Shown here in pieces: positions 18,939 through 55,539 of a DNA stretch of 60,849 bases. The DNA is taken from positions 1 to 60,849 of the forward strand of contig DAOOQF010000001.1 of the NCBI GenBank assembly GCA_035388665.1. The letters are read 5' to 3'. A program made the translations under genes and the position numbers. The stretch's first letter is position 1; every line of letters starts with the position of its first letter. The notes under the pieces were generated by a model, which was not told the origin of the DNA, did not search any database, and saw only the letters and a list, made by a program, of their open reading frames with translations. The DNA comes from a bacterium. GTDB taxonomy: Bacteria > Patescibacteriota > Patescibacteriia > Patescibacteriales > UBA12465.

Positions 18939-18958
18939 AAACAGCTTTGTAGCTGTTT
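18939..18958 (-). terminator. Hairpin overlapping the mtaB stop codon (candidate intrinsic terminator)
   Basis: AAACAGCT-TTGT-AGCTGTTT is a perfect 8-bp stem with a 4-nt loop. On the minus strand it is followed by A/T-rich sequence (ATTTAATTT). Confidence 0.45.
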
Positions 18959-27712: not shown

Positions 27713-27724
27713 ATAATTTATAAA

Positions 27725-28792: not shown

Positions 28793-28799
28793 TCCAATT

Positions 28800-36807: not shown

Positions 36808-37833
36808 ATGAAAAATAAAAATGGCTTTACGCTAATAGAATTATTAATAACCGTTTTTATTATTGCTATAATTTTGACAATCGCCACAATATCTTTTAGT
36901 GAGATAAGAAAAAACTCTCGAGATAATCAGAGAGTTCAGGATATACAACAAATGCAATTGGTGCTAGAAAAATATTACCAAGAAAATAATTCTTATCCCA
37001 ACGAAATTATATTTGGCGGATCCTTGACTAACGAAGAGGAAGAAAAGATATATTTGTCAAAAATACCACAAAACCCTAGTCCCAGATCAGATGAGTCTTG
37101 CCCTGAGTCTGAATATATCTATGAGATAAATAATAATAATTATTCTATTGAATTTTGTTTAGGAAAAGAAACCGGAAAAGTCTCGGCTGGGTATAATTGT
37201 GCTACCCCCCAAGGCATTAGATCTGGAAAATGCTTTCAATGTGGAGTGTCCGTTTCATATGACGGACAAGATTATGCCACAATTCAAATCGGAAATCAAT
37301 GTTGGTTTAAAGAGAACCTCAACGTCGGAATAGCAAAACTAAATAACGAATCATTAAGCTCGAGTTCGCCAGAAAAATATTGTCACGGAGCAACTAATTA
37401 TGAAACCGATCCATCAAATAATTGTTCAATATATGGAGGGTTGTATACCTGGGAATCATTAATGCAGGGGGGCTCAGAAGAGTCTGCTCAAGGTCTTTGT
37501 CCGTCTGGTTGGCATATTCCAACAATTGATGAATTAATGGAATTAATAGACGGTTTTGGAGGATTATCTATCGCCGGAGAAGGACTAAAAGCTTCTAGCA
37601 CCGACCCAGTTCCATGGGATGGAAATAATAATTCAGGATTTACGGCATTACCCTCTGGAGGAAGAAATACTTTTGGAGCTTTTTTTGGTCTATCATCCAA
37701 TACTACCTGGTCTTCAACGCCTCTTGATAGCTCGTCGTCAAATGTAATAAATTTAAACTCGGAAATTAATGATATAAATAAGTATTCTTTATTAAATGAT
37801 TTTGCCTTTTCAGCTCGTTGTATAAAAAATTAA
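36808..37833 (+). CDS. Prepilin-type N-terminal domain fused to a FISUMP-type domain (paralogue of 35711-36793)
   Basis: NG|FTLIELLITVFIIAI, QMQLVLEKYYQENNSYP. Then NQCWFKENL, YGGLYTWESL, CPSGWHIPTIDEL, FTALPSGGR, WSST, FSARCIKN. Same architecture and conserved Cys pattern as its neighbour. Confidence 0.8.
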   Translation: MKNKNGFTLIELLITVFIIAIILTIATISFSEIRKNSRDNQRVQDIQQMQLVLEKYYQENNSYPNEIIFGGSLTNEEEEKIYLSKIPQNPSPRSDESCPESEYIYEINNNNYSIEFCLGKETGKVSAGYNCATPQGIRSGKCFQCGVSVSYDGQDYATIQIGNQCWFKENLNVGIAKLNNESLSSSSPEKYCHGATNYETDPSNNCSIYGGLYTWESLMQGGSEESAQGLCPSGWHIPTIDELMELIDGFGGLSIAGEGLKASSTDPVPWDGNNNSGFTALPSGGRNTFGAFFGLSSNTTWSSTPLDSSSSNVINLNSEINDINKYSLLNDFAFSARCIKN

Positions 37834-40072: not shown

Positions 40073-41869
40073 TTAATTAATATTTTCAATTCTGTTTATT
40101 TTATATAAAGAAAAATTTTCATTAATATTTTTTATTAACTCTATTTTCATTCCAAATTCTTTTAATCTTCTATGGTTTAAATATTCCAAATCAGCTTCCG
40201 GCAAGGTAAAATTATAATAATAAACCGGGATGTATTTGGTTAATTTATAATAATTATAATTCATATTATTGTCATTGAATCTTCCGACAATAACCTTTCT
40301 CTCTGGAAAAAGGAATTTATCATGATACTCTGTTATAATAACAGAATCATTTTCGGTAATTTCCAATAAGGCAAGAACCTCTTGCTTGGCAATTTTAGTT
40401 TTATTAAAATAATGCTTTAAACCCTCCTCCGATCCAATATAAACAAATCTCAAAGATAAGCCTATCATCCCGACAACTAAAAAAATACCCAACCAATAAG
40501 ACAAAAAATTAAATATTTTCTTGTTTTTTATCCAGCTAATTAACTTAGAAATATTGTGGAGAAAAACAGCGGTTAAGGGAATAACACCTATATAAATCGG
40601 CAACCAATACCTAGTGTAGGAATTACCAATAGTAAATCTAGTGGGATCTGGGTTGTCAACAAATTTCCAAGAGCCGTAATAAACAACCAGAATCAGAGAT
40701 AAAATAACCCAAGAAATCCCATAGGGCAAGACTTTTCTAAAAATAGCTTTTTGTTTAAAAAACAGATATATTAAGCCAATTATAGCAGGACCAAATAACC
40801 ACCAAAACATCTTTAAACAGTATTCATTAAACATACTCAAGGATTGACGAGGGTGAAAACCAAAATAAAAAATAGTGTTAAAAATGGATTTGGCAAAATT
40901 TTTAATTTCGTTGACGTGACCACTTAAAAAAGACTTTAATATGCCTCCGCTAGCCTGACTAATGCCCTCTATTGATTTATTCATCTCGTAATAACCCCCA
41001 TAGAAAGGTGAATTATATAAAACTTGATTATTATACAGAACTGGCATCAGAGCTAAAAAAATAAAGGAAAAAAATATGGCTAAACGAAAAAAACTAATTT
41101 TTTTATATTTAAAAATTAATAAAACTAAACCAGCGGGGGCTAACCAAATTAACTCTGAGGCTCTGGTTCCAATAGCTAGTCCCAAAAACAAACCTGCTAA
41201 AGCCGAGTACACAAAATCAAAACCAAATAATTTTTTAAAATAATTATTTTTTTGTTTTAAGCTTATGTCCCGCAAAAGAAAATTTTTTATTTTACTAGGA
41301 TTACTTTCCAGCAAGCTTAATAAAAAATATATAGAAATAATAATAAAAGATAAAAAAAGGATGTTATGAAACATGCTTCTGGCGGAATAATAAATAAAAA
41401 CTGGAAAAGAAAATAATAATAAAAAGGAGAAGAAACCAACCTTATCACCAAACATTTTCTTAATAATCAAATAATAAAATAACAAGGCTATGGCCGCAAA
41501 TAAAGGAGTCAAAAATGGAATAACTCCCGAGCCAAAGATATTGGCCACCTCCCCATAAATTATTGTCATGCCCAGAAAACTAACGGGCTTAACTACCCCC
41601 TGCCAAGAAAAATAACTCCTAGGAACAATAATATCATCAGCGATTAAATTATATTTTTCAAAAAAATGTAAATTCCCCCTGTCCTGATATAATTGAGCGA
41701 AAATATAATTAGCATTTTCATCAGGAGAAAAAAATTTTAGAAATTCTTGATTATTCTGAAAAAATGGCAAAATAGAGGTCATAACAAAAAAAAGACCCGA
41801 AACTAAAATAACTGGTAGTAAAAACCGATCTTCTCTAAACTTTACTTTTATCTTATTAACAATATTCAT
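40073..41869 (-). CDS. Polytopic GT-C-type membrane glycosyltransferase (ArnT/PMT_2-like)
   Basis: More than 10 TM segments. First-loop acidic motif SPDENANY and an overall ArnT/PMT-like layout with a soluble C-terminal domain. The family call is by architecture only. Confidence 0.5.
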   Translation of the reverse strand: MNIVNKIKVKFREDRFLLPVILVSGLFFVMTSILPFFQNNQEFLKFFSPDENANYIFAQLYQDRGNLHFFEKYNLIADDIIVPRSYFSWQGVVKPVSFLGMTIIYGEVANIFGSGVIPFLTPLFAAIALLFYYLIIKKMFGDKVGFFSFLLLFSFPVFIYYSARSMFHNILFLSFIIISIYFLLSLLESNPSKIKNFLLRDISLKQKNNYFKKLFGFDFVYSALAGLFLGLAIGTRASELIWLAPAGLVLLIFKYKKISFFRLAIFFSFIFLALMPVLYNNQVLYNSPFYGGYYEMNKSIEGISQASGGILKSFLSGHVNEIKNFAKSIFNTIFYFGFHPRQSLSMFNEYCLKMFWWLFGPAIIGLIYLFFKQKAIFRKVLPYGISWVILSLILVVYYGSWKFVDNPDPTRFTIGNSYTRYWLPIYIGVIPLTAVFLHNISKLISWIKNKKIFNFLSYWLGIFLVVGMIGLSLRFVYIGSEEGLKHYFNKTKIAKQEVLALLEITENDSVIITEYHDKFLFPERKVIVGRFNDNNMNYNYYKLTKYIPVYYYNFTLPEADLEYLNHRRLKEFGMKIELIKNINENFSLYKINRIENIN

Positions 41870-41951: not shown

Positions 41952-44909
41952 TTATTCTAAAATATTTTTTAAGCCACTTCTGAAATCTTCAATGGAAAAG
42001 GCCCCACTATTATTTGATCCAATAATCAAAGCTTTATCTTCCATGGCAACCTTATCAAAATTTTCTTGCAAATTTCCAAAAGATTGGTCATTCAAGCCCT
42101 CTTCTATTCTAATCCCGCCAGCTCTAGGAAAGGAGATGTCAACAGATTTGCCAGTCTCGGCATCTCTTAGGGAAAAACCTAGCCTATTACCAAGATTATC
42201 AACTTTTTCTATTATTTTTAAATTAGAAAAATCCTCTCCCAAAACTTCTTTAAAATTGTCTGGAGTTTTAAAGCTTTCGTTAATATTACCAAAACCTTCT
42301 GAAGAAACTTCAACTGAGCTTTCGTTTATTTCTGAAGCTTTAATATCTTTAGAAGAATTATCATTACCTCCTTCGAAATTGTCAACGTTACTGTCTATCA
42401 CTTTTTCGGGAGATGATCCAGTTATAATATTGCCATCACTACCCCTTAAAACAATCTTACCGCTCTCATCATAATCAAGTCTTAGGGCGTTGGGGTCACT
42501 AATAGACTCCATATTACCAGAATTATCAAAGGTTACGGTCTCTGCATTTTCTGAAATATTTTGATCATTTATGATGTCACTATTGGAAACATTATTATCA
42601 GCTATCTTTTCTATAGTTAATTTTCCATCGCTCGAACGAGTCATTTCATATTCTGGTTTTTCAAAAACAATTTCCTCTTCTTCATTATTAATAATGCTTG
42701 GACCAGATAACTCATCCGGAGCAGAAGTATTTAAGTTACTAGCTACATTATTATCAGAATTTATTTCGGGCGAAATTTTTAGATCTTCTGGTTTTAAAGT
42801 GGCCATTTTTTCGGGAACTATATTTTCTTCTGGTAAATAATTATCAACATATTTGGGATTATCGATAATTCCTTGTTTACAAATAACATTTACATTACCG
42901 TCCCCCCCCAAAATAACCTCATCTCCCGGATGAATAATCTTACTGCCAGCAGTGGCTTCAAAAACTTCACCGGTTTGTTCATCAATAAAATTAACTTTAT
43001 AATTACTGCTCATATTTCCATCAAAAATTTTGGAAATACCGTCTCCGCTTTCTATTATTATTGATTTCTGAGGAGCTCCTATTATTTCAGTTATCTTTTC
43101 TGCATTAGAAACATCCACATCATCAAGATTGATATTATTTTCTATATTAGCTTCGCCGACCTCGACATTACCTTCAACACTGGTAGTGTTATCAATGCCC
43201 GAGATAGTTTCACCATTTACCGAAGAAGAATCAACGCCTTCAAGACCGACAACATCACCCCCTCCGTCCGATGAATATTGAAAAAAATCGGGATTTTTAA
43301 TATCAGAGAAAAAATCATCCGATTGAATCTCGGCCTGACCTTCAACAATCTGAACACTATGAAGGTTTTCTGTTATTGAACTAATCATACTAGGAGTCAA
43401 AGCTCCTAATATTGTTCCCCCCACTTTAAATAAAGTAGATTTGAGCTTATTAGCTTCTTGAATTTTTTTATCCTGTAATAGAATATTTTCTTTTCTGTCA
43501 TTTAAATTAACAGCATTAAATCTAGCTCTAATAAGATGAATATATTTATTAGTTTCATCAATATTTTTTTTAATAAATAAATATCTTCCAGGATTTATAT
43601 CCTTAACTGAATTTTTCTCGATTTCCAAAATAGCCCTAGCCTTTGTTTCTTCAAGTCTATCCAGGTCATTTAAGAGATTATCAAATAAATCGATAGAGTT
43701 ATCATCGCTATTATTTTCGTCAAAAACCTTTTTGCTATATTCACTATAGGCTAACTTAATATTATTTAGCTTCTCGGCAAAGATCTGCTCATTAAAATCT
43801 GGAGAGACTTCTTTTTTGTTAATCATGCTATCGGCTAAACCTCCTAAATTCCAGCCCAAATAAGCTCCTAGAATATTTTTGATTACCGGAATCTCTCGAG
43901 CGACCTTACCAGCCGTAATAATAGCTCCACTAATTATTATAGATCTAATAACCTTGGACTCCACTGAAGAAGTTTTTCCTTTTGTTAAAAAATTATTAAT
44001 TTTTTCCATTGCGCCCAATGGTTTAATATTACTAGCCTCTTCTTTTTTAATTTGAGATTTTTCTATGTCTAATTGATATTTATATTTTCTAATAACTTGA
44101 TCCTTAATTTCTGACTCTAGTTGAGGATATTTAATCTCTACAAAATCACTGATAATCTTGTTTCTCTCCTCTTCCGTTTTATTTATTAAAAAGTTTTCAC
44201 TAGAAATTTTTTCTTCTTTCTCCAATTTTCTAACATATAATGACGAAGCAATATTATTGGCTAATTTCTTTTCGTCAAGTTTTTTTCTTATTTCCTTGGA
44301 CTTAGTTTCAATGTTTTTCTTATCTTTTCTGTCAGAGATATATTTTTCTAAATTTCTAAAAAGAGCTACACCAGCTACTCCGGCCACCCCAGCCGTAGTC
44401 AAAGAAACCGCTACTGTTCCAGCTAGATATGCTGGAATTCTAATTAAGGTAGCGATGGGAATATTTTTATTACCAATCTTAATGGTTTTTTTTGATTTTA
44501 AAACTTCAGACTTAGCCTCCAAAGAAATCTTATCATTATAAGCCTCAAAAGCTGCTAAAATTTCATATTTATCAAGACCTAACTTATTTTCCAAATTATT
44601 AATAATCTTATTTAATTTTTTTAAATTTTCTGGAACATCTTTATTAGAAGCAATTAACTCTTCTTCTCGCGCTACGCTCTCTTGCAAAAAATCCAATAAA
44701 TTTGGATTATTAATAAAAAAACTACTCAATTCGCTTAAATCTTTAAAAACTTCGGGCTTCTTAAAGCTTTCTCTCTTAATGCTTTCTAAGCCCTTGATAC
44801 TTTTTAAGTCATCCTCAAACTCCTCTAAAACAAAATTCTGCTGTTCAATATTATTATCAGAATTATTATTTTTTTTATTAACTGCCATATTTTTGTAATT
44901 ACTTTTCAA
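41952..44909 (-). CDS. Large (985 aa) membrane protein of unknown function
   Basis: Acidic/coiled-coil N-terminal region. Gly/Ala-rich TM (AYLAGTVAVSLTTAGVAGVAGVALF). Further hydrophobic segments (IISGAIITAG..., LFKVGGTILGAL). Long Asp/Asn/Ser/Gly-rich C-terminal half. I recognise no family motif. Confidence 0.75.
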   Translation of the reverse strand: MKSNYKNMAVNKKNNNSDNNIEQQNFVLEEFEDDLKSIKGLESIKRESFKKPEVFKDLSELSSFFINNPNLLDFLQESVAREEELIASNKDVPENLKKLNKIINNLENKLGLDKYEILAAFEAYNDKISLEAKSEVLKSKKTIKIGNKNIPIATLIRIPAYLAGTVAVSLTTAGVAGVAGVALFRNLEKYISDRKDKKNIETKSKEIRKKLDEKKLANNIASSLYVRKLEKEEKISSENFLINKTEEERNKIISDFVEIKYPQLESEIKDQVIRKYKYQLDIEKSQIKKEEASNIKPLGAMEKINNFLTKGKTSSVESKVIRSIIISGAIITAGKVAREIPVIKNILGAYLGWNLGGLADSMINKKEVSPDFNEQIFAEKLNNIKLAYSEYSKKVFDENNSDDNSIDLFDNLLNDLDRLEETKARAILEIEKNSVKDINPGRYLFIKKNIDETNKYIHLIRARFNAVNLNDRKENILLQDKKIQEANKLKSTLFKVGGTILGALTPSMISSITENLHSVQIVEGQAEIQSDDFFSDIKNPDFFQYSSDGGGDVVGLEGVDSSSVNGETISGIDNTTSVEGNVEVGEANIENNINLDDVDVSNAEKITEIIGAPQKSIIIESGDGISKIFDGNMSSNYKVNFIDEQTGEVFEATAGSKIIHPGDEVILGGDGNVNVICKQGIIDNPKYVDNYLPEENIVPEKMATLKPEDLKISPEINSDNNVASNLNTSAPDELSGPSIINNEEEEIVFEKPEYEMTRSSDGKLTIEKIADNNVSNSDIINDQNISENAETVTFDNSGNMESISDPNALRLDYDESGKIVLRGSDGNIITGSSPEKVIDSNVDNFEGGNDNSSKDIKASEINESSVEVSSEGFGNINESFKTPDNFKEVLGEDFSNLKIIEKVDNLGNRLGFSLRDAETGKSVDISFPRAGGIRIEEGLNDQSFGNLQENFDKVAMEDKALIIGSNNSGAFSIEDFRSGLKNILE

Positions 44910-44916
44910 AATAAAT

Positions 44917-45249
44917 CTATTTTATTATACTATTTAAAAATTCGGTCATTCCTTCTTGTATCTTTTTATCTAAATCTGGAATATATTTTTTAATAATTTC
45001 TTCTAGTTTACTAGGATCTGGCGACAAAATATCAGAAGAAACCGCCTTTTCGTATTCCTTTAGGCCCTCTTCATCTAGATTTTCTAATATTATTAGACCC
45101 AATCTTCTGGTAATTTGCATCTCTAAACTCTCTCTAAAATCTTTTAACTCTTCCTCTGGCAAATCCTTAATATCTAATTTCTCTATAACCTTGTCGACCA
45201 AAGAAGATATCTCGTCCTTGCCCACAAGAGTTTCATTTAAATTATTCAT
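44917..45249 (-). CDS. Small acidic helical protein (resembles the DUF5663-type proteins common in Patescibacteria)
   Basis: 110 aa with the pattern L.I.DLPEEEL..F.E.L......R.....LE.LDEE.L.EYEK......PD..KLEE.I.KYIPDLD..I.E....F. The family assignment is from memory and is tentative. Confidence 0.6.
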   Translation of the reverse strand: MNNLNETLVGKDEISSLVDKVIEKLDIKDLPEEELKDFRESLEMQITRRLGLIILENLDEEGLKEYEKAVSSDILSPDPSKLEEIIKKYIPDLDKKIQEGMTEFLNSIIK

Positions 45250-45386: not shown

Positions 45387-47462
45387 TTATTCCAAAATGT
45401 CGCCAGTAGAAGTGCTCAACGAAGATTCTGTTATATTCTCCAAATCCTTAGTAAAATACCAATTCAATATTTCACCAGCTATTGAAGTGGCTATCTGACT
45501 GCCCTCTTTCCCCTCCTCTACTAAAACAGTTAAGACTATTTCTGGATCATTATAGGGAGCAAAGGAGGTAAACCAGGCATGAGGAGTTTTATCGGTTCCC
45601 CATTGAGCTGTACCCGTTTTACCAGCAATTTCCACCGGCAAAGCACTCAATCTGGCTGCACTTCCGCTAATAGCTGTTTGACGCATCCCTTCCCTAAGTA
45701 TTCTAATATTTTTTTCACTAATAAAATTTTGTTTTATTATTTCTGGCTCAATACTTCTAAAAATCTCTTCTCCGTTAAATAAAACTTGTTTGACTAAATG
45801 TGGTCGATATAATTTCCCAAAATTAGCAAAAAAAGAAGTAAAATTGGCCACCTGCAAGGGCGTAACCAAAATATCTCCTTGCCCAATAGAAACATGGTAA
45901 GTGTTTCCAATATACCAACTCTCATTTCTAGTTTCTTCCTTCCACTTGGGAGTAGGAACAAAACCACTGGCCTCCTGAGGTAAATCTATTCCACTTTGTT
46001 TGCCTAGCCCAAACAAATCTAAATATTCTACAATTTTATCAATTCCCAGTCCTTCAAATTTATCATACCCCCCGCCGATGAAATAAAAGAAGGTATTAAC
46101 TGATTCAGCTATCGCTTTTTTAACGTTAGTTATACCATGACCGCCAGCCTTCCAATCAGGAAAAAACCAGGCTCCCACCGATATACCACCAACACTATTA
46201 ACTGTAGTGTTTTCAGTGATCACTTTTTCTTCTAAGGCAGCGGCAGCAATAGTTGGTTTTAAGGTTGAGCCAGAAGGAAAAGTTCCACTAACCGACCTAT
46301 TAAAGAGAGGTCTATTAGGATTATTAATTAAGGCGGAATAATCAGACTGACTTATGCCCTTAGAAAAAATATTGTTATCATAAGAGGGCCAACTGATTAG
46401 AGCTAAAACCTCTCCATTATTAGGATTCAAGGCCACAATAGAAGCTCTTTCCATTCCGGCTTGTTTTAAATATTTTTTTAGAATTTCTTCTGATTTTTTT
46501 TGCAGATCCAAATCTAGGCTCAGAACTAAGCCATGACCATCTTCTGGCAAAATTTGAGAAACAACTTTTTTCTCTCGACCTAAAGCATCAACTTCTACAT
46601 TTTTTTTACCCTTAACTCCCTTTAACTCATTTTCATAGAAATACTCTAAACCAGATTTGCCAATATAATCAATTAAAGAATATTCTTCTCCAAATATCTC
46701 CAATTCTTTCTCAGAAATTTTTTCAGTATATCCAGTCAAATGCGAAAGACTAGAATAATTTTCTTCCGAACTTAAATATTTTCTTCTCATTTTAATTGAT
46801 AGAGAAACTCCGGGCATTTTTTCGGCTTCCAAATAAAGTATCATAGCAGAATTATAATCAATATTGTCCATCAAGAAAAAGGGGCGATAAGACTCTAGAG
46901 ATCCATATTGAATTTTGTCCAGCTTATTTTTGATTTCATAAAAATGAGGGCTATCGCTAATTAATGTAAACTTTGAATTAACAATATTATTTAAGGAATT
47001 ATTTTCTATTCCTGAAATAATATTAGCTAATTTTCTAATTATTTCATCTCTATATAATTCATCTTTAGGCAAGTCTATTGGGGTTAAATATAGCACAAAA
47101 TTAGCTTCATTTTTAACTAAAGGGGTCATATTGGAAGAATAAATTACACCTCTTTTTGGCTCAATACTTTCCGCCCTGATCCTATTGCCCTCGGCTAAAA
47201 TTCGATATTCATCTCCCTTTATTATTTGCAACCAAACCAATCTAATAAATAGTAAAGAAAAAGAAATAAACAAAACTACAAAAATTCGAGAAATCTTAGC
47301 AAAGTCGAATGATCTTCTTAAAGTTTCTTTATCGTTTTCGCCAAATAAAAAAGAATCCTCCATCCAACCCAAATGGTAAAAAGAATCTTTTAAATTTCCG
47401 AAGCTATATTTTTTTTCCTTAATAACAAAAGGATCGTTTTTTTTCTCAAAATTTAATCTCAT
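45387..47462 (-). CDS. mrdA: Class B penicillin-binding protein (PBP2-type transpeptidase)
   Basis: N-terminal TM, RLVWLQIIKGDEYRILAEGNRIR...PKRGVIY, active-site SGSTLKP (SxxK), SVN (SxN), KTGTAQ (KTG). Confidence 0.85.
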   Translation of the reverse strand: MRLNFEKKNDPFVIKEKKYSFGNLKDSFYHLGWMEDSFLFGENDKETLRRSFDFAKISRIFVVLFISFSLLFIRLVWLQIIKGDEYRILAEGNRIRAESIEPKRGVIYSSNMTPLVKNEANFVLYLTPIDLPKDELYRDEIIRKLANIISGIENNSLNNIVNSKFTLISDSPHFYEIKNKLDKIQYGSLESYRPFFLMDNIDYNSAMILYLEAEKMPGVSLSIKMRRKYLSSEENYSSLSHLTGYTEKISEKELEIFGEEYSLIDYIGKSGLEYFYENELKGVKGKKNVEVDALGREKKVVSQILPEDGHGLVLSLDLDLQKKSEEILKKYLKQAGMERASIVALNPNNGEVLALISWPSYDNNIFSKGISQSDYSALINNPNRPLFNRSVSGTFPSGSTLKPTIAAAALEEKVITENTTVNSVGGISVGAWFFPDWKAGGHGITNVKKAIAESVNTFFYFIGGGYDKFEGLGIDKIVEYLDLFGLGKQSGIDLPQEASGFVPTPKWKEETRNESWYIGNTYHVSIGQGDILVTPLQVANFTSFFANFGKLYRPHLVKQVLFNGEEIFRSIEPEIIKQNFISEKNIRILREGMRQTAISGSAARLSALPVEIAGKTGTAQWGTDKTPHAWFTSFAPYNDPEIVLTVLVEEGKEGSQIATSIAGEILNWYFTKDLENITESSLSTSTGDILE

Positions 47463-47573: not shown

Positions 47574-48017
47574 TTATCTAGTAACTTCGATTGTTTTTCC
47601 TTGTTCAGCATTAGGAGCCATAATTTTTACTCTATTAGCTGTAGTTGAGGTAGAAATTGTATATTCGGTAGATGATGAAGTAGATTTTGGATCAAAAGGA
47701 ATTGATACTAAATATTCTGGAACTAATTCATCTAAAACAACTCCACAAGAAGCGCCAACGGTTTCTCCATAACGACAGATTTCTTTTGAAGTGCCATCAA
47801 TGTTTCCTCCTCCTGGTAAAGCACCGTCATTATCAATAGCGTATTGATAAACACCATTTAAAATTGTGTTAACATCAACCCATCTTTGTGAGTTACGAGT
47901 GTCAGCTAATTGCTTAGTTGGGTTAATGGCTAAAATAACGATACTAGCCAAAATAACCAAGGCGGCTACAGCTAACAAGATTTCAAGCAAAGTGAAACCA
48001 TTTTTGTTTTTGTTCAT
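47574..48017 (-). CDS. Type IV pilin-like protein (candidate major pilin A)
   Basis: MNKNKNG|FTLLEILLAVAALVILASIV class III signal with E at +5. About 140 aa mature protein. Cys pair in the C-terminal half (CRYGETVGASC). Confidence 0.85.
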   Translation of the reverse strand: MNKNKNGFTLLEILLAVAALVILASIVILAINPTKQLADTRNSQRWVDVNTILNGVYQYAIDNDGALPGGGNIDGTSKEICRYGETVGASCGVVLDELVPEYLVSIPFDPKSTSSSTEYTISTSTTANRVKIMAPNAEQGKTIEVTR

Positions 48018-48085
48018 AAAAACTTGTAATATTCCTATAAAATGACAGTCATTATTATAAAAATATTTAATTATAATATTTAAAA

Positions 48086-48532
48086 TTATTTTGTTATCTC
48101 TATTTCCTTTCCATTTTCAGCATTAATTGCTCGCACCACTATTCTATCATATTCTTTTCTAATAGTATAGCCCGTTTTATCCAAATTCTTAACCTTAGGG
48201 TCAACTGGAATTTCGTGTAGATAAATATTTTTATAAGTCAAAACTGACAAGTCGACTCCGTCATTACAAAAATAATTATTGGTTTGACAAATTTCTTTTT
48301 CCTCCTCGGTTATATCTTCTGGAAAATTACCATTATAATCAATTGAATATTGATAGAGAGCTTTCAATATAGTGTCAGCGTCAGATGATCTTTGTGCATT
48401 CCTAGTATTGGCCAATTGCTTCGCTGGATTTAAGGCCCAAAATATTATTAAAAATAAAGTAATAATAACAACAACAGCCAACAAGACTTCTATTAAAGTA
48501 AAACCATAATGTCTCCTTGCTATTAATCTCAT
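48086..48532 (-). CDS. Type IV pilin-like protein (candidate major pilin B, paralogue)
   Basis: HYG|FTLIEVLLAVVVI. Shares NP.KQLA.TRN.QR..D..TIL...YQY.ID..G..P with the neighbouring pilin. Confidence 0.85.
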   Translation of the reverse strand: MRLIARRHYGFTLIEVLLAVVVIITLFLIIFWALNPAKQLANTRNAQRSSDADTILKALYQYSIDYNGNFPEDITEEEKEICQTNNYFCNDGVDLSVLTYKNIYLHEIPVDPKVKNLDKTGYTIRKEYDRIVVRAINAENGKEIEITK

Positions 48533-48561: not shown

Positions 48562-48948
48562 TTAAAAATCAGCTACTTCCTGCCAAGAAACAATATTAAT
48601 CTCGGGATTAATTTGGTCAATTATTATTTTTTCTTTTCTAATAATATTTTCTACTTGCCCCCAAGAATTAATAGTTCTATTTTCTCCACTGCCAGATATA
48701 ACAGAATATGAACAATTCCCCTCTAATAATAAAAAATTATTAGCTCCGTCAAAATCATTTTCATCATTTATTTTTTGTAAAGCATATTCGGAACAAGTTT
48801 GAGCCAACATTCTGGCCTGATCGGATTTTTTTATAATAAGACCACCCTGTGAAGAATTAAGGTTTATATAAATCATAAAAACGGCAATTGATAAAATAAT
48901 AGCCCCAACAATAACGACACTAATTAAAGCTACAAACCCCTTTTTCAT
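48562..48948 (-). CDS. Pilus-associated minor pseudopilin-like protein (PilX-like N-terminus, no E+5)
   Basis: MKKGFVALISVVIVGAIILSIAVF hydrophobic N-terminus with Ile, not Glu, at +5. Its stop lies 1 nt from the start of the neighbouring pilin gene at 48562. Confidence 0.55.
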   Translation of the reverse strand: MKKGFVALISVVIVGAIILSIAVFMIYINLNSSQGGLIIKKSDQARMLAQTCSEYALQKINDENDFDGANNFLLLEGNCSYSVISGSGENRTINSWGQVENIIRKEKIIIDQINPEINIVSWQEVADF

Positions 48949-48949
48949 A

Positions 48950-49486
48950 TTATTTTAAATTTAAATTAACTGAACCAAAAAAATCTTTATTATATTCATA
49001 TTGTTTTTTCCCAGAACTATTTTTATAGGAAACTGTAAAAGAAAAATTAATGCCTTGAATATTATCAACAATTGAATTATTAATAAAATTTATATTAGAA
49101 ATAACCACCCTATCTGAATTTAAATTATCAATTACAATTCCATTTTCGGAGGTCATCAAGGTGTCGGCGTCCAAATAAAAAACGATTGGACTTCTTGAAA
49201 TATCAAAAGATTGCAAAGACAAGGAAGATGAGTTATTTCCTATGGTTGGGGAAATAATCGATTGAGCATTTCTAATTCCTTGACTAATAATTTGAGAAAT
49301 AAACAATCCTTGTTGCTCCACTTCAATAGTGACGGAGTTTTTATTTTTATTTTCATAAAAAATATTCAAAACTAAGAATAGGGATACAAAAAAAACAGAA
49401 AAAAGAGCAATATAAAAAATTAATTCTATTAAAGTAAATCCGTTTTTTCGTTTATTTTTTATTTTCAGTTTATTTTTTATTTTCAT
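48950..49486 (-). CDS. Minor pseudopilin (prepilin-type N-terminal methylation motif)
   Basis: KNG|FTLIELIFYIALFSVFFVSLF. 178 aa, with a beta-rich C-terminus. Confidence 0.8.
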   Translation of the reverse strand: MKIKNKLKIKNKRKNGFTLIELIFYIALFSVFFVSLFLVLNIFYENKNKNSVTIEVEQQGLFISQIISQGIRNAQSIISPTIGNNSSSLSLQSFDISRSPIVFYLDADTLMTSENGIVIDNLNSDRVVISNINFINNSIVDNIQGINFSFTVSYKNSSGKKQYEYNKDFFGSVNLNLK

Positions 49487-49491
49487 AAATA

Positions 49492-51972
49492 TTAAAAACT
49501 AATCGGTCCAACTGTCTTGCTAGAACCATCGGAAAAATTAAAGACTATACTATTTATAGTTCTATTTCTAAAATCATTTTGAAACCTAAATCCTAAAGTA
49601 TAAATATCACTTGAATTAATAATATAATTACTAAAGTTAATAGTATAGGGAGAATTATTATTTGAAGCTACGGAGGTCCCGCTTAAAATAGTTTCGCGAA
49701 GCCTAGAACCACCTGTCCAGGTCAATCTAATTGAGGTTAAAGTTAAACTATTAGAGCTATTATTAGTAAGAAAAATATTATAGACACTACGATTATTAGG
49801 GTTACCAGAGCCTACATAGGCCCCACTAGTATCTACCGAGAGATAATCAGCTTGAGGCAGCGGTCGATTAGCACAATAACCAAAAGATGTCGGACTTCCT
49901 GATAAAATATTTTTATTATAAGAAAGACCAGAAGCATTTAATATTGGCTCCGTAAATGACCAATTAGCATTCCAAACGCTATATGGAGTCCCATTTTCTG
50001 GAGCAGTGCTTAAATCTACATTAACAAACCAAGCAATTGGAGTAACAGAATTAGTTGAAACATTGACAGTGGCACAATATCCGGAACCCCAATCACTATC
50101 AATCGTAATTGAGTAATTAGCCTCTTCATCCGGATAAATAATTTCTGGTCGATTAGCGCAATAGCCAAAAACAACTGGGTTACCAATAGAGACCTCATTG
50201 TTATAAGCCAAGCCCGAGACGCTCAGAATTGGCTCAGAAAAAGACCAGTCAACTTCCCAAGCAGTATAAGGAATGCCATCAATCGGGGCAGTATCAAGTA
50301 ATAAATCGGTTTGCCAGATTATTGGACTAGCTGAATCAGTAGATACAATAACATCAGCGCAATATCCAGTGCCCCAATCACTTGTTATGTTGATGTTATA
50401 ATCTATTATCGGAGCTGGCGGTAAGCATGACTCCGCTTCAAAGGAGATAATTGGTTCAGAATCATAATATTTTTTTATTAAAACATTATTAGGATAATTT
50501 GGAGTAGCATATCCATAATTATTATATAAATCTAAAATTTCTTCAGCTAATAAAGCTTTATTATATATTTGAGTCTTATCAATATTACCATTAAAATATC
50601 TGTCGTTACTAGATCTGCTGCCAAGTCTCAAGTCGCTATTAGAGGTAACTAGATTGCCACTCCAAGTAGCTTGTCCACTTAATTGTCCATTAACATAAAT
50701 TTTTAAGGTCGCTCCATCATATGTGCCAACAACAAATTGCCAAACACCCTGAAGAGGTGGGGCCGAGCTAGCTGCCCAACGATTACCGGCCGATGTTCTA
50801 ATAGCAAATTCAAAACTGCTATTATTACTACTATGATGAAGTCTATACTGATTATCAACGTTTTTGTTTATAATAGATGACCATTGAGCTCCAGAGGCAG
50901 GATTAATATTCCACCTAACCCAAGAGGCCAAAGTAATTTCATCGGTCATATTTAAACTAGCGGAGTCGCTAACATTAACATAATCATTAATACCATCAAA
51001 TCTCAGAGAATCATTTAAAAGGCCTATTTCTCTAGAAGCCCCTGAGATAGAGCCAGCATTATTATTTCCGGAAGAATCTTCTACGATTGATCCCGCTCCC
51101 TCATCCATAGAAAAATCTAAAATTAAACCACCATTTATTTCTCTCACAAAAACACTAGAGGTAGCGCTAACACTGTCGGCCAAACTATTATTATAATACA
51201 AATAAATATTGTTATTGGCACTATTGGTGATAGTTGATACTTTTGTCCAAATCTTTGTTTCAACAGTATTACAAGTGCTTGGCTCTATCCAATGAGGCAA
51301 CTCCACATTTCCAGAATAATCAACAATTCTAATATCACTACAATCACTTTTTATTTTTCCCTGTGATATTAACTCGGCAGTATTAAAAGTTAATAATAAT
51401 TGATAATTAGAAAAACTTTGAGAAGCAGATGAATTATCGATAATTATATTTTGTCGACAATTCCAATTATTATCCCACCAGATAGTTGGCCCCAAATCAA
51501 TCTTGGCCCAATCGGTAAAATGCTTAGATAAAATAACCCGACCCAAGCGATTAAATTTTTTAGTCCAAGATATTTCCACTACAGCCTTCTTTTCTTTTTC
51601 TGATATTGTAGAAATTGTGACTACTCTTCTAAACCCAGCGGTCTCATCATATTGACCAGAAAAATTCCACTCACCTCCGGAAAAAACCAAACCATGAACA
51701 CCATCCGACAACCCAGCAAAATCTGAATTTCTAATACTCTCTACCGCCATCATACCTTCGTTAGCCAGAAGAGAGGCTCGAGAAGATAAATTATCCTTGC
51801 TCAAAGAATCTCTACCATATAATAATAGCCCGGTAACTGAAACTAATAACAAAATAAAAATGGAACTAGATAATAATATTTCCAAAACACCAAAACCTTT
51901 TTTATGGCGAAAAAATATACAAGAAAAATATTTTAGCCAGAAATTTATTTTAAAAACAACATTTGTATTCAT
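49492..51972 (-). CDS. Giant pseudopilin: prepilin N-terminus + DUF2341-like + LamG/ConA-like + 2 x CBM2-like modules + C-terminal beta-rich domain
   Basis: KKG|FGVLEILLSSSIFILLL (E+5). WWDNNWNCRQNIIIDNS...DIRIVDYSGN.ELPHWIE...KIWTKV...IYLYYNN (DUF2341-like). MDEGAGSIVEDSSGNNNAGSI...LRFDGINDYVNV...ITLASWVRW...WQFVVGTYDGATLKIYVNG...LRLGS...FNGNIDKTQIYNKAL (Laminin_G_3-like). Two tandem repeats of about 95 aa ending in FGYCANRP. Confidence 0.8.
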   Translation of the reverse strand: MNTNVVFKINFWLKYFSCIFFRHKKGFGVLEILLSSSIFILLLVSVTGLLLYGRDSLSKDNLSSRASLLANEGMMAVESIRNSDFAGLSDGVHGLVFSGGEWNFSGQYDETAGFRRVVTISTISEKEKKAVVEISWTKKFNRLGRVILSKHFTDWAKIDLGPTIWWDNNWNCRQNIIIDNSSASQSFSNYQLLLTFNTAELISQGKIKSDCSDIRIVDYSGNVELPHWIEPSTCNTVETKIWTKVSTITNSANNNIYLYYNNSLADSVSATSSVFVREINGGLILDFSMDEGAGSIVEDSSGNNNAGSISGASREIGLLNDSLRFDGINDYVNVSDSASLNMTDEITLASWVRWNINPASGAQWSSIINKNVDNQYRLHHSSNNSSFEFAIRTSAGNRWAASSAPPLQGVWQFVVGTYDGATLKIYVNGQLSGQATWSGNLVTSNSDLRLGSRSSNDRYFNGNIDKTQIYNKALLAEEILDLYNNYGYATPNYPNNVLIKKYYDSEPIISFEAESCLPPAPIIDYNINITSDWGTGYCADVIVSTDSASPIIWQTDLLLDTAPIDGIPYTAWEVDWSFSEPILSVSGLAYNNEVSIGNPVVFGYCANRPEIIYPDEEANYSITIDSDWGSGYCATVNVSTNSVTPIAWFVNVDLSTAPENGTPYSVWNANWSFTEPILNASGLSYNKNILSGSPTSFGYCANRPLPQADYLSVDTSGAYVGSGNPNNRSVYNIFLTNNSSNSLTLTSIRLTWTGGSRLRETILSGTSVASNNNSPYTINFSNYIINSSDIYTLGFRFQNDFRNRTINSIVFNFSDGSSKTVGPISF
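49862..50420 (-). repeat. Tandem in-frame duplication encoding the two CBM2-like modules of the giant pseudopilin
   Basis: Repeat 1: ...NITSDWGTGYCADVIVSTDSASPIIWQTDLLLDTAPIDGIPYTAWEVDWSFSEPILSVSGLAYNNEVSIGNPVVFGYCANRP. Repeat 2: ...TIDSDWGSGYCATVNVSTNSVTPIAWFVNVDLSTAPENGTPYSVWNANWSFTEPILNASGLSYNKNILSGSPTSFGYCANRP. Confidence 0.8.
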
Positions 51973-51978
51973 ATAATA

Positions 51979-52425
51979 TTAATATTCAATAACCCCTAGG
52001 CTATTTATATTTAAAATTTTATTTTTGTTACCATCGCTCAAAATTATGTCTCCGCCTAAATTAGGACGACCACTAAACTTTAAAAAAACAATTTCATCTA
52101 AACCAGAATTCTTTATATTTTTATTAACTTTAAATATTTCGTCCCAAGAAGAATCTCTGGACAAATAATCAACGCCTCTAAAGATAATAATATCCTCATC
52201 AATTAATTTTATGCCCCAAGAAGAATCTCCCTCAACAGCCATCGATAATAATTGCGCTTTTCTTAAAGAGCTAGCCAAGGCATTAGCTGAATTATCAAGA
52301 TCATCGGCGCTTTTAGCCGAAAAATAAATGGGAGCAACGATAGCTGAAGTTATTGCCAGTAGGGCTACTACTAAAACAAGTTCTAAAAGAGTGAATCCAA
52401 TTTTTTTATTTAAAATTTTGATCAT
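51979..52425 (-). CDS. Minor pseudopilin, GspH/FimT-like
   Basis: KKIG|FTLLELVLVVALLAITSAI, followed by ...NSANALASSLRKAQLLSM, which is typical of GspH/FimT-type pseudopilins. Confidence 0.75.
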   Translation of the reverse strand: MIKILNKKIGFTLLELVLVVALLAITSAIVAPIYFSAKSADDLDNSANALASSLRKAQLLSMAVEGDSSWGIKLIDEDIIIFRGVDYLSRDSSWDEIFKVNKNIKNSGLDEIVFLKFSGRPNLGGDIILSDGNKNKILNINSLGVIEY

Positions 52426-52438
52426 AACTGGTCATAAA

Positions 52439-53491
52439 TTAATTTATTTGACCGATAAGATTATATACTGGCAAAATTATAGCCAAGGCCAGAAAAAGAA
52501 CGCCCACCCAGACAATCACCAATAGAATTGGCTCTAAGGCAACCGCTAAATTTTTAGTAGTTAGATCTAGCTTTTCTTCATAATTTTTTCCAATCTTAGA
52601 AAAAGATTCTGACAACCTACCTGACTTCTCGCCTACAAAAATTATTTGTTGAATTGGCAAAGGAATATATCTATTTATCTTTCGATAAGAAATCATACTT
52701 TCCCTGAAAGACAATCCTTCTGAAATTTTATTAGATAAATGTTTATATATTTTTTTATAAAAATGATAAGGCGAAGATTGCTCCATTGATTTTAAAGCTT
52801 CTGTAATACTAAAACCAGCCCCCAACAAAACTCCCAAAATAAAACCAAAACGAGAAAGCTCTGATTCTACTATTAATTTTTTGGTTACAAAAATATTAAA
52901 TAAAAAATTTTGACCAATATATTTAGTCTTTTTATTAATAAAAAATAAATAAAACATTAATATTATTAAACCAAAAACCACTGGGAAAAAGATAATTCCA
53001 TAACTCTGAAAAAATAAACCAACAGAAATCATTATTCTAGTAAGAAGAGGCAATTCGATATCAAGCTGAGTAAAAATTAGAGCTAACTTAGGAAGTAAAA
53101 ACCAACTCATACCAAAACCAATTACTAAAACCATCGACAAAACAATCACTGGATACATTAAGGCTGAATAAACTTTACTTCTAAATATTTTTTCCTTTTG
53201 GTATTGTCCAGACAGAATTTTTAAGTTCTCGCCCAAATGTCCAGACTCCTCCCCTATTTTAACCAAAGAAATGTCACGACTAGAAAATATTTTAATTTTC
53301 TCTAGGGCTTGCCAAAGATTAAATCCAGAGTCTATATATTCTCGAAGAGACAAAATTTTTTCTTTAAATCCTTTACCATCTATTCCACTAAAAATAATTG
53401 ATAAAGCCTCAGAAATATTAACCCCAGAATCTATTAAGATTGATAAATTTTCTACAAAATATTCTTTATTCTTGGTATTACTTGTAAACAT
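52439..53491 (-). CDS. pilC: Type IV pilus / T2SS platform protein (GspF/PilC family)
   Basis: Two T2SSF-like repeats (LS.L..SG.....AL.....; ...GE.SG.L...L). Three TM segments. C-terminal EP.L...VW..V.F.A.AI.LP. Confidence 0.88.
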   Translation of the reverse strand: MFTSNTKNKEYFVENLSILIDSGVNISEALSIIFSGIDGKGFKEKILSLREYIDSGFNLWQALEKIKIFSSRDISLVKIGEESGHLGENLKILSGQYQKEKIFRSKVYSALMYPVIVLSMVLVIGFGMSWFLLPKLALIFTQLDIELPLLTRIMISVGLFFQSYGIIFFPVVFGLIILMFYLFFINKKTKYIGQNFLFNIFVTKKLIVESELSRFGFILGVLLGAGFSITEALKSMEQSSPYHFYKKIYKHLSNKISEGLSFRESMISYRKINRYIPLPIQQIIFVGEKSGRLSESFSKIGKNYEEKLDLTTKNLAVALEPILLVIVWVGVLFLALAIILPVYNLIGQIN

Positions 53492-53508
53492 ATTTTTATA
53501 TAGATTAA

Positions 53509-55155
53509 TTACGGCAAAGCCACCCTCAATAAATCATCCAACGAAGTAATACCATTTTTTACCTTAACAACCCCATCACCAAACAAAGAAGTAGTTCCCT
53601 GCTTTTGGGCTAATTCCCAAATCTGTTTAGCCGAAGGTTTAGTAAGTATTAGATCCTGCATTTCAGTGGTGTTTAGAATTATTTCAAAGATAGCCAGACG
53701 CCCTTTATATCCAGTAAAGCCACAGGCCTCGCAACCATGAGCCTGAAAAATAACATTGTCATCCTTTTTAAAGTATTTAGAAACTCCGACATGATGTCTT
53801 TCTAAATCCTCTTTAGTAACGCTAACGCTATAACGACATTTTTCACATAAACGACGAACTAATCTTTGAGCAACAACTACCCTCAAAGTTGATGACAATA
53901 AAAAAGGCTCAATATTCATATCCAGCAAACGAGCAATGGTGGTAGCAGCATCATTAGCGTGAAAAGTTGAGAAAAGCAAATGACCAGTCAAAGCTGAATT
54001 AACAGCCATCTCAGCAGTCTCATCATCTCTAATTTCACCCACCATAATAATATCAGGGTCTTGTCTAACAATTGATCTCAATCCCTTGAAAAAGGTTAGG
54101 TTGGTACTAGTATTAACCTGAATTTGGTTAACCCCCTTAATTCGATATTCAATCGGATCTTCCAGCGTGGTAATATTTACCCTAGGGTTATTTAATAATT
54201 TTAGTAATGCATAGAGAGTAGTAGTCTTACCACTACCAGTTGGTCCAGATGTTAAAATCATCCCGAAGGGTCTCTTTATCTCCTGTCTAATTATATCTCT
54301 TTCTTTTTTTTCTAAACCAATTTCGTGAAGATTGAATCCTTTAATATATTTGGCCAAAACACGAATAGCAATTTTTTCACCGTAAATAACAGGCAAAATA
54401 GAAATACGTAAATCAATCTCTTGACCATCAGAAAGATATTTCATAGATCCATCTTGGGCGGAATAATGTTCATCAATTCTCAAGTCGCTCTGAACTTTTA
54501 TGAAGTTTAAAATATTATTGTAATATTCCTTGGATATACGACCAGCCTCCTGCAAGACGCCATCAACCCTAAAACGAATAATAGTTTCTTTGCTTTGAGG
54601 TTCAAAATGAATATCAGAAGAATTATAAGATAAGGCGTCTTTAAAAATTTCTCCCACGATTTCTTGAGCCACTCTTTTGCCGGTTGCAATAATATCACTA
54701 AATCTGGTTTTTAACGGTTTTTTATAAAAATATTCAAAAACAAAATCAACATCCTCTGATAAAGAATAAGATAAGATAATATTTTCAACAGGAAAAATTT
54801 CATGCATTTTTGAAAATAATTCTCTAGCCTTTTTAATATCATCTGAGCAAAAGAACATTTTGTCTCCTTCCTCCTTAATCAAAACAACCCGATATTCTTT
54901 GGCAATGTCTTCGGGTATTTTTAAGACCTGTTCATAGGTTGGCAAGTTTAATTTTAAATCAAAATAAGGAACGCCCTCCGATTCAGAAATTGACTCCCCC
55001 AAAAGCTCTTTGGTTAATAATCCATTTTCTAGGAGATAGTCGACCAAAGAAACATCAGAATTTATAAGATTTTTTTCAGCCTTGTCTAAATCAACTTTAG
55101 TAATATAACTACCAGAGATTAAAATATCTCTTATTTTTTGATTATCAAAATTCAT
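53509..55155 (-). CDS. pilB: Type IV pilus assembly / T2SS ATPase (GspE/PilB family)
   Basis: N-terminal GSPII-like domain. SDIHFEP. Walker A SGPTGSGKTTTLY. Asp box TLEDPIEY. Walker B PDIIMVGEIRD. His box TGHLLFSTFHAN. Tetracysteine CEKC...CEACGFTGYKGR. Confidence 0.95.
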   Translation of the reverse strand: MNFDNQKIRDILISGSYITKVDLDKAEKNLINSDVSLVDYLLENGLLTKELLGESISESEGVPYFDLKLNLPTYEQVLKIPEDIAKEYRVVLIKEEGDKMFFCSDDIKKARELFSKMHEIFPVENIILSYSLSEDVDFVFEYFYKKPLKTRFSDIIATGKRVAQEIVGEIFKDALSYNSSDIHFEPQSKETIIRFRVDGVLQEAGRISKEYYNNILNFIKVQSDLRIDEHYSAQDGSMKYLSDGQEIDLRISILPVIYGEKIAIRVLAKYIKGFNLHEIGLEKKERDIIRQEIKRPFGMILTSGPTGSGKTTTLYALLKLLNNPRVNITTLEDPIEYRIKGVNQIQVNTSTNLTFFKGLRSIVRQDPDIIMVGEIRDDETAEMAVNSALTGHLLFSTFHANDAATTIARLLDMNIEPFLLSSTLRVVVAQRLVRRLCEKCRYSVSVTKEDLERHHVGVSKYFKKDDNVIFQAHGCEACGFTGYKGRLAIFEIILNTTEMQDLILTKPSAKQIWELAQKQGTTSLFGDGVVKVKNGITSLDDLLRVALP

Positions 55156-55167
55156 AAAAAATTAAAT

Positions 55168-55539
55168 TTATTTTAAAATATCTTTGATATAATTAATTAT
55201 ATCAACAATACTAACGTCCGATTTTATAAAATATTTTTTAATACCGAACTTCTCGACTTTTTTTAAGTCCTCTTCTTGACCCAAGTTTGAGGTTACAATA
55301 ACTGGAGTCTTGTTTTTTCCGGCTGACATTTTTTCCAGAACATCAAAACCACTAATATTTGGCATTACCAAATCTAAAAGCATTAGATCAAATTTTTCTT
55401 TTTTCAAATAATCCAGGGCTTCTTGTCCGTCGACAGCTATTCTAGGTCTAAATCCCGAATTTAATAATTTTAATTCCAAGGCTCTAGCCAAGGGTTTTTC
55501 ATCTTCTACTATCAAAATCTTTTTTGGTTGTGAAACCAT
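55168..55539 (-). CDS. Single-domain response regulator (CheY/PilH-like) heading the pilus operon
   Basis: ILIVEDE, phospho-acceptor context LMLLDLVMPNISGF, conserved T/S in VIVTSNL, K in IKKYFIKS. 12 nt upstream of pilB. Confidence 0.85.
   Translation of the reverse strand: MVSQPKKILIVEDEKPLARALELKLLNSGFRPRIAVDGQEALDYLKKEKFDLMLLDLVMPNISGFDVLEKMSAGKNKTPVIVTSNLGQEEDLKKVEKFGIKKYFIKSDVSIVDIINYIKDILK

Follow-up and report, generated by a model that had tools for sequence, protein, structure and literature searches.

A candidate modular type IV minor pilin of Patescibacteria with a lectin-like and carbohydrate-binding module chain in an exchangeable cassette

The DNA analysed here (the window) comprises positions 1 to 60,849 of contig DAOOQF010000001.1 (assembly GCA_035388665.1), which belongs to a bacterium of the Patescibacteriota. 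On its minus strand, at positions 49492 to 51972, lies an uninterrupted open reading frame (ORF) for a protein of 826 amino acids (aa), starting with ATG 6 bases past the stop codon of the upstream gene. Public databases hold an identical protein, for which the only name is 'DUF2341 domain-containing protein [bacterium]', and the protein was found on several independent metagenome contigs. In an earlier note, made from the sequence without database searches, the ORF was described as a large pseudopilin with the prepilin motif KKG/FGVLE (slash, predicted cleavage site; Glu at +5), and both ORF and motif are present exactly as claimed. The gene is interpreted here, with a probability of about 0.65, as encoding a type IV minor pilin of modular build from the Patescibacteria (Candidate Phyla Radiation, CPR), which would display a chain of glycan-binding modules at the pilus tip and carry an exchangeable cargo.

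The N-terminus consists of a leader peptide (51895 to 51972; aa 1-26, with Gly26 as the last residue and low confidence in the AlphaFold2 model) and the prepilin motif, which can be read directly (RHKKG26/F27GVLE31, Glu at +5) and is followed by about 20 hydrophobic residues. No in-frame ATG, GTG or TTG is found between M1 and Gly26, so that the leader is 25 aa long; a shorter one was considered and dismissed, since no canonical in-frame start is available for it. An ATA at codon 19 could give a typical leader of 7 aa, which would be a non-canonical start and would leave the mature protein unchanged. The pilin module proper (51502 to 51894; aa 27-157) was modelled by AlphaFold2 (predicted local distance difference test score, pLDDT, 86 for the whole protein) as a 55-residue helix (residues 29-83) packed on the strands of a β-sheet (91-153), the lollipop of type IV pilins, at pLDDT 80-91. 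In the model, the pilin fold gives way to a disordered linker and then to several β domains in a row; the linker (51475 to 51501; aa 158-166, from model and alignment) has a pLDDT below 50 at residues 159-163. A minimal homologue (P0117) was modelled with the same lollipop fold, a disordered linker and an all-β domain (pLDDT 85.5). The family members examined have a K/N-rich leader that ends in G or A and then F-[G/S]-x-[I/L]-E, from which only P0166 departs, with Asn at +1. The relative P0147 passes the N_methyl model of Pfam (25 bits, cut-off 21.2). With NCBIfam, 15 heads of the family matched most frequently ComGE (13/15, best E = 1.9e-5) and XpsI (10/15, 1.8e-6), followed by the GFxxxE model TIGR02532 (6/15) and GspI (5/15), while PilV, ComGF and GspJ were matched by two heads each. 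A profile of the heads, searched against PDB sequences, gave matches confined to pilin N-terminal helices (E 0.005-2), among which structures of GspI or PilV did not appear. The typing of the head as I-type (GspI/XpsI/ComGE-like), based on these matches, is suggestive rather than proven.

Behind the linker, the modules named in the earlier note (DUF2341, LamG and two CBM2-like modules) were all recovered above curated Pfam thresholds. The DUF2341 β-sandwich region (51118 to 51474; aa 167-285, delimited by Pfam, alignment and AlphaFold2 model) has its Pfam core (PF10102) at aa 210-276 (E = 2.2e-15, 57.3 bits, cut-off 23.4; model positions 1-66 of 84) and contains a pair of cysteines (Cys211/Cys234). 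Next comes a ConA-like lectin jelly-roll (50521 to 51117; aa 286-484), matched by Laminin_G_3 at aa 326-479 (E = 2.1e-29, 103 bits, cut-off 27.6) and, among PDB sequences, by 4qvs (E = 5e-10). Foldseek assigned the same fold through lectin-like domains of trans-sialidase and of clostridial neurotoxins (HCN), with E about 1e-10; with the full-length model it returned LamG-type matches alone, and head, DUF2341 region and tail were not typed by it. A post-LamG segment (50407 to 50520; aa 485-522, YGYATPNYPNNVLIKKYY...) is common to archaeal and patescibacterial DUF2341-LamG proteins.

Two repeats in tandem follow, placed by the earlier note at 49862-50420 and found at 50421-49855 (aa 518-612 and 613-706). 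They align over 86 aa gap-free with 57% identity, at a score of 287 compared to 30 ± 6 for 500 shuffles. The duplication is shared by the orthologues and is old, as the DNA of the repeats is only about 65% identical. CBM_2 (PF00553) matches two stretches, the better one at aa 621-704 (E = 3.6e-15, 56.6 bits, cut-off 24), and repeat 2 aligns with the solved CBM2a of Clostridium cellulovorans EngD (3NDY; PDB sequence search, E = 0.0034). The statistical support for the lectin and carbohydrate-binding module (CBM) assignments is thus strong by Pfam, to which Foldseek and 4qvs add for LamG and 3NDY for repeat 2. According to the alignment with 3NDY, the binding-face aromatics would be W533, W572 and Y590 in repeat 1 (50149 to 50406; aa 523-608) and W628, W667 and Y685 in repeat 2 (49864 to 50121; aa 618-703), corresponding to what we take to be the ligand-face aromatics of CBM2a, W17/W54/W72 in Cex numbering. 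These triads are invariant across five orthologues except for one Y to W exchange, and are also present in the repeats of larger relatives. An internal cysteine pair (GYC...FGYC; Cys538/Cys605 and Cys633/Cys700), likewise invariant in five orthologues, probably forms a disulfide. The repeats are therefore members of CBM2 of a divergent subtype, since profile and aromatic triad fit while the terminal cysteines are replaced by the internal pair. A planar face of three aromatics would point to a type-A ligand, i.e. an ordered glucan or chitin-like surface.

The DUF2341-LamG unit (aa ~141-515) has counterparts in proteins labelled as archaeal. With P0010, P0017 and P0023, which bear the labels of a Thermoplasmata, an Aenigmatarchaeota and a Nanoarchaeales archaeon, it shares 37-42% identity (lowest E 1e-104), and the similarity includes the conserved post-LamG motif (LDLYNNYGY.TPNYPGK.LVRKY). 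A further, unlabelled relative, P0019, begins with MKAQVSFEY, which presumably resembles an archaeal class III signal. Possibly, the two episymbiont radiations, CPR and DPANN, have this unit in common as an adhesin cassette. In Candidatus Dojkabacteria (CP129475.1, locus L004, 5830-7458), an orphan pilin of 542 aa encoded outside any pilus operon has a major-pilin-like head (KA/FTLLD, Asp at +5) fused to LamG, the motifs of which are near-identical to those described here (WIKWNINPASGAQWAQIINKNVDNQYQ...); judged from these sequences, LamG has evidently passed from one pilin head to another. A scan of reference genomes, among whose species representatives the lineage of the window is apparently not included, returned two distant DUF2341/LamG matches only.

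The C-terminal all-β domain (49495 to 49863; aa 704-826) was left without a name in the earlier note and correctly described there as Ser/Asn-rich (38 of the last 121 residues). It has no match in Pfam, but is more than a mere appendix. A HMMER search with aa 702-826 among 1.84 billion representative sequences yielded 51 proteins at E ≤ 1e-3, of which roughly four-fifths carry the domain at the extreme C-terminus, often in 2-9 copies. Six of the proteins recovered (P0117, P0142, P0147, P0157, P0162 and P0163; about 265-280 aa) consist of the pilin head and this tail with nothing else, which identifies the tail as a conserved partner of the head; a profile search with this minimal family found seven proteins. 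Foldseek with the head-tail model of P0117 gave no PDB match at E ≤ 1e-3, and neither a tail profile against PDB sequences nor Pfam on 21 tails gave anything significant. The tail is thus considered an undescribed, rare domain family, so far found mainly in proteins labelled as Patescibacteria. CBM35/36/6, WxLIP and Als were rejected as its fold (weak matches, template modelling scores of about 0.2-0.37), as was an identity with Arch_flagellin (marginal at E = 0.056 and 14 bits, cut-off 29.5, in 2 of 21 members). The tail described here and its closest relative, P0118, lack the near-universal Trp motif VWSGN of the family and have SVASNNN in its place.

The gene is part of a minus-strand operon in the order response regulator, PilB, PilC, H, the modular pilin, J, K and two G-type pilins. 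The response regulator at its head, the assembly ATPase PilB (T2SSE, E = 2.5e-117) and the platform protein PilC (T2SSF, E = 1e-40) are encoded at 52439 to 55539, upstream of the minor pilins and in the same orientation. An H-type minor pilin (GspH/XpsH/ComGD-like, 148 aa, 51979 to 52425) directly precedes the modular pilin, and a J-type one (ComGF/GspJ-like, 178 aa, 48950 to 49486) follows it, both assigned from profile matches. The next protein (128 aa, 48562 to 48948; MKKG/FVALI) lacks Glu5 and is a candidate K-type subunit with a weak GspK match (E 0.14); the GspK-type cap subunits of type II secretion system (T2SS) pseudopilins are without Glu5. Two GspG-like pilins of 148 and 147 aa (47574 to 48532) are candidate major pilins. 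As far as these assignments go, the position of the modular pilin is consistent with the I slot of an H-I-J-K-then-major gene order.

This slot is where the loci of relatives differ. The syntenic order PolA, response regulator, PilB, PilC, H, X, J, K, major pilin(s), PBP2 and DUF5663, with X as the position of the modular pilin, was found with slot X filled in every locus examined, answering the question raised by the earlier note of whether the gene is present in related pilus operons. In five syntenic loci the slot is held by heads of the same family with different cargo, amounting to at least five architectures (assigned from the sequences and Pfam). Compared to the 826-aa protein of the window (head-DUF2341-LamG-CBM2-CBM2-tail), locus L001 encodes 536 aa (head-tail-fn3-tail), L002 and L003 363 aa (head-CBM2-tail), L007 1269 aa (head-DUF2341-LamG with a Kelch-like insert-DUF2341-LamG-tail) and L008 1158 aa (head-LamG-LamG-tail-CBM2-CBM2-tail). 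The DNA of L001, a close relative, matches the window at 88% identity up to 51503 and again, at 86%, from 49563 on, with nothing alignable between; 49563 to 51503 is thus the cassette that is swapped between the two. At the protein level, identity ends exactly at the boundary of head and linker (HFTDWAK157) and restarts in the last ~25 residues (about aa 803), so that both recombination junctions are sharp. Among orthologues of the same architecture every module is 45-63% identical, so that a hypervariable domain was rejected and the diversity is attributed to the exchange of modules, all of which are similarly conserved. In L007 (4488-5539), PilC (T2SSF) was called as two ORFs (218 and 128 aa) rather than as a single 350-aa ORF; a frameshift, decay to a pseudogene or a fault in the assembly could account for the split.

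Directly downstream of the pilin genes, a PBP2-type transpeptidase is encoded (45387-47462, minus strand), as it is in L001, L002, L007 and every syntenic locus covering the region; the linkage is an unusual, conserved pairing of pilus and cell-wall synthesis genes. Two ORFs follow on the same strand: a 110-aa protein (44917-45249) without a Pfam match at E ≤ 1e-5, the counterparts of which in L001 and L007 are annotated as DUF5663, and a 985-aa ORF with a TTG start (41952-44909), acidic, of low complexity and without a Pfam match, in which a hydrophobic segment (AGTVAVSLTTAGVAGVAGVALF) may span the membrane. The order PBP2-DUF5663-large ORF is syntenic in L007. Away from the operon and adjoining gatB, two modular pilins of 360 and 341 aa are encoded in tandem on the plus strand (35711-36793 and 36808-37833), with N_methyl (E 8e-8 and 8e-9) and Fib_succ_major (PF09603; E 1e-29 and 9e-25) domains. 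Together with the 826-aa protein, they bring the number of cargo-bearing pilins in the genome to at least three. Surface-glycan genes on the minus strand (26933-29663, 40073-41869 and 24683-26011) encode three clustered glycosyltransferases of family GT2, a PMT_2-type glycosyltransferase and a PEGA-domain protein, and may bear on glycosylation of pilins or of the envelope. A 741-aa protein (37837-40062, minus strand) is a fusion of a MiaB-type methylthiotransferase (UPF0004, Radical_SAM and TRAM) and MiaA (IPPT), i.e. of two consecutive tRNA-A37 modification enzymes in one polypeptide, and a second, stand-alone UPF0004 and Radical_SAM protein is encoded at 18957-20249.

Grafting of functional modules onto pilins is established, and the protein belongs to a known class of modular lectin pilins. 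In the InterPro terms used below, we take IPR018765 to be DUF2341 and IPR001919 to be CBM2. Raynaud et al. counted more than 1,200 modular pilins in their 2021 InterPro census (PMC8179133, Dataset S1), in which IPR012902-PF13385 is the commonest architecture (229 proteins, with CPR examples) and IPR012902-IPR018765-PF13385 (3), IPR012902-IPR018765 (7) and IPR012902-IPR001919 (3) are also listed. With its head, low-pLDDT linker, DUF2341, Laminin_G_3 and two CBM_2 modules, the protein fits the modular pilin of these authors, and many of the census pilins combining the same building blocks come from the CPR. The earlier note overstated the novelty of the architecture in this respect, as the catalogues already contain modular lectin pilins and, among the listed combinations, pilin-DUF2341-LamG and pilin-CBM2. 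The full combination DUF2341-LamG-CBM2-CBM2-X is absent from the passages of the list examined. A census of that design would have missed the protein, since models of the IPR012902 type do not detect its N-terminus.

Characterised relatives in design are those of Streptococcus sanguinis, where structure and function were studied for PilC, a modular minor pilin in which Ig-like modules and a ConA-like lectin are combined (PMC9934059), as well as for PilB, a pilin with a vWA module (PMC8179133). They share with the protein a short pilin module, a linker and adhesive modules, in PilC including a ConA-like lectin fold, and are encoded in a monoderm-type type IV pilus locus. PilC was modelled in a tip complex with the I-like PilA (PMC9934059), whereas the cargo of the protein described here is borne by the presumed I-type head itself and comprises five modules instead of two; past the fold superfamily there is no sequence relationship to PilC, and binding is predicted for the protein of the window. 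From the Patescibacteria themselves come PilX1 and PilX2 of the Saccharibacteria strain TM7x, large lectin-like minor pilins proposed as tip adhesins for host glycans, in an organism with glycan-dependent host binding (PMC11623550). They are likewise large patescibacterial minor pilins with C-terminal carbohydrate-binding-like folds, but, compared by their description, differ in their accessory folds (an unclassified jelly-roll and a β-propeller) and are named X-type subunits. GspI, XpsI, ComGE and PilV share with the protein a small α/β head, Glu5 and a position between H-like and J-like genes, along with a suggestive N-terminal similarity; these canonical I subunits are about 100-170 aa long and without extra modules, and the family described here scores far below their equivalog cut-offs.

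For the DUF2341-LamG unit, too, a place at pilus tips was proposed before. DUF2341 is labelled by CDD as a component of type IV pilus-like systems, DUF2341 proteins of archaeal type IV pilus loci (MJ1470/arCOG03508) were proposed as tip adhesins (PMC4858521), and PilY1 variants with DUF2341-LamG N-termini are catalogued in Dataset S2 of the census (PMC8179133). These PilY1 variants and the DPANN proteins share with the gene product described here the unit and a proposed role as pilus-tip adhesin, but carry an archaeal N-terminal anchor or the PilY1 β-propeller. The latter has no Pfam match at E ≤ 1 in the 826-aa protein, the N-terminus of which is that of a pilin, and a PilY1/PilC-type tip adhesin was rejected accordingly. 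An outward-facing laminin-G-like domain is also present in TafC, the tip subunit of haloarchaeal Tat-fimbriae (PMC11821415), which differs in Tat secretion and in assembly by donor-strand exchange. The TafC family model (NF052521) scored 65.5 bits at an equivalog cut-off of 410, with the match confined to model positions 192-362, the LamG part, so that membership was rejected. New here are the presumed I-type head as carrier, the chain of five modules, the unnamed terminal domain and the documented exchange of cargo within one slot.

If the gene product is a modular minor pilin as proposed, its leader would be cleaved by a prepilin peptidase encoded elsewhere, and the head would join the neighbouring H-, J- and K-type pilins in a priming complex that ends up at the tip of the filament assembled by PilB and PilC. 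The module chain of ~670 aa would then project from the tip and bind glycans, either of a host cell-wall polysaccharide or of an insoluble β-glucan or chitin-like surface, and recombination among close relatives would exchange the cargo, which is flanked by the constant head on one side and by the last ~25 residues, also constant, on the other. Cargo exchange would make the protein the likely specificity determinant of the pilus. Operon slot, modules and precedents argue well for the tip adhesin suggested by the earlier note, with the location at the tip and the binding of carbohydrate as its predicted elements. Going one step further, we tentatively suggest that constant head and constant tail bracket a plug-in display platform, on which recombination exchanges lectin, CBM, fn3 or propeller cargo and thereby sets the host or surface choice of an episymbiont, much as in mosaic receptor-binding proteins of phages; the DUF2341-LamG part of the cargo would be shared with surface proteins of DPANN archaea, and the tail might have a role of its own, e.g. 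in docking to the J and K subunits or in capping.

Several observations weigh against the interpretation as a modular tip pilin. The 826-aa protein itself is matched by neither PF07963 (N_methyl) nor TIGR02532, even at E ≤ 1, and its leader of 25 aa (MNTNVVFKINFWLKYFSCIFFRHKK-G) is long and partly hydrophobic compared to the K/N-rich leaders of 9-18 aa in orthologues, although the closest relative, P0009, shares the long leader. All matches of the family heads to I-type models lie below the equivalog cut-offs and are driven largely by the N-terminal helix, and here, too, the protein itself is unmatched. Where HIJK complexes have been characterised, I is the smallest of the subunits and free of cargo; to assume tip display from the I position is therefore an extrapolation. 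A prepilin peptidase (Peptidase_A24), PilT and PilM/N/O are not encoded in the 61-kb window, the remainder of which is chromosomal housekeeping. Finally, neither CBM2-like repeat has cysteines at the module termini for the canonical disulfide joining the N- and C-terminal ends. The identification as a type IV pilin is nevertheless supported, as the visible motif, the family members matching the models, the predicted fold and the operon context outweigh the failure of the profiles on this one protein. For the same reasons it is quite improbable that an uncleaved N-terminal helix anchors the protein in the membrane as a cell-surface lectin without assembly into a filament. The profile miss, the long, partly hydrophobic leader and the lack of PilD in the window would fit such an anchor. 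Against it stand the conservation of Gly-1, Phe+1 and Glu+5 throughout the family, the relatives that pass N_methyl, the predicted lollipop fold and the unchanging place of the gene within the H-I-J-K block of five loci. The suspicion of a generic transmembrane anchor, which the earlier note had named as a possible objection, is countered by the helix and sheet of the AlphaFold model, the matches of the homologous heads and P0147 in particular.

More is to be said for a different target of the same modular pilin. It could grip insoluble polysaccharide of the environment (crystalline cellulose, chitin fibres or biofilm cellulose) in the attachment to substrates or particles rather than to a host cell. 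In both CBM2 repeats, the three aromatics that typify the planar face of type-A CBM2a modules are kept, as assigned by sequence alignment, the best solved relative is the CBM2a of a cellulase, and the two other modular pilins of the window are fused to Fib_succ_major, a domain named for a cellulolytic bacterium. On the other hand, no glycoside hydrolases were seen in the window, all cultivated Patescibacteria are episymbionts with pili mediating host binding, and cargo swaps among close relatives suit a variation of host range better. Taken as a whole, attachment to environmental polysaccharide is rather unlikely, while insoluble cellulose or chitin-like material as the ligand is a serious alternative; host cell-wall polysaccharide is favoured because Patescibacteria are episymbionts and host binding of TM7x is glycan-dependent. 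The operon might also assemble a short pseudopilus of the competence or T2SS type for DNA uptake or secretion, with the module chain of the I subunit binding either an exported substrate or the wall of the cell itself. ComGE is the most frequent match of the heads (13 of 15), the neighbours match ComGD, ComGF and GspG/H/J models, no retraction ATPase is encoded in the window and the pilin genes are followed by one for PBP2 wherever a syntenic locus covers the region. This reading is considered improbable, since the matches are below threshold and mainly reflect the shared N-terminal helix, a swapped lectin/CBM chain of ~670 aa is ill-suited to a housekeeping role across the wall, and type IV pili of Patescibacteria were shown to be surface filaments.

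Host recognition by ultrasmall episymbionts is poorly understood. The candidates with the most support are type IV pili, and in Saccharibacteria minor pilins resembling lectins were recently implicated. A lectin-bearing minor pilin in the CPR would hardly surprise a specialist; the layout of constant head, constant tail and swappable cargo and the new tail domain are testable leads on the choice of attachment. The locus provides a concrete candidate for a specificity determinant with recognisable modules of the glycan-binding type. Censuses based on the N-terminal motif miss such pilins, as the corresponding models fail on this one. The analysis also defines a small family of C-terminal domains that is specific to pilins of this type and has no name. 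The naturally cargo-swapped alleles in an otherwise conserved operon permit the type of cargo to be correlated with host or habitat.

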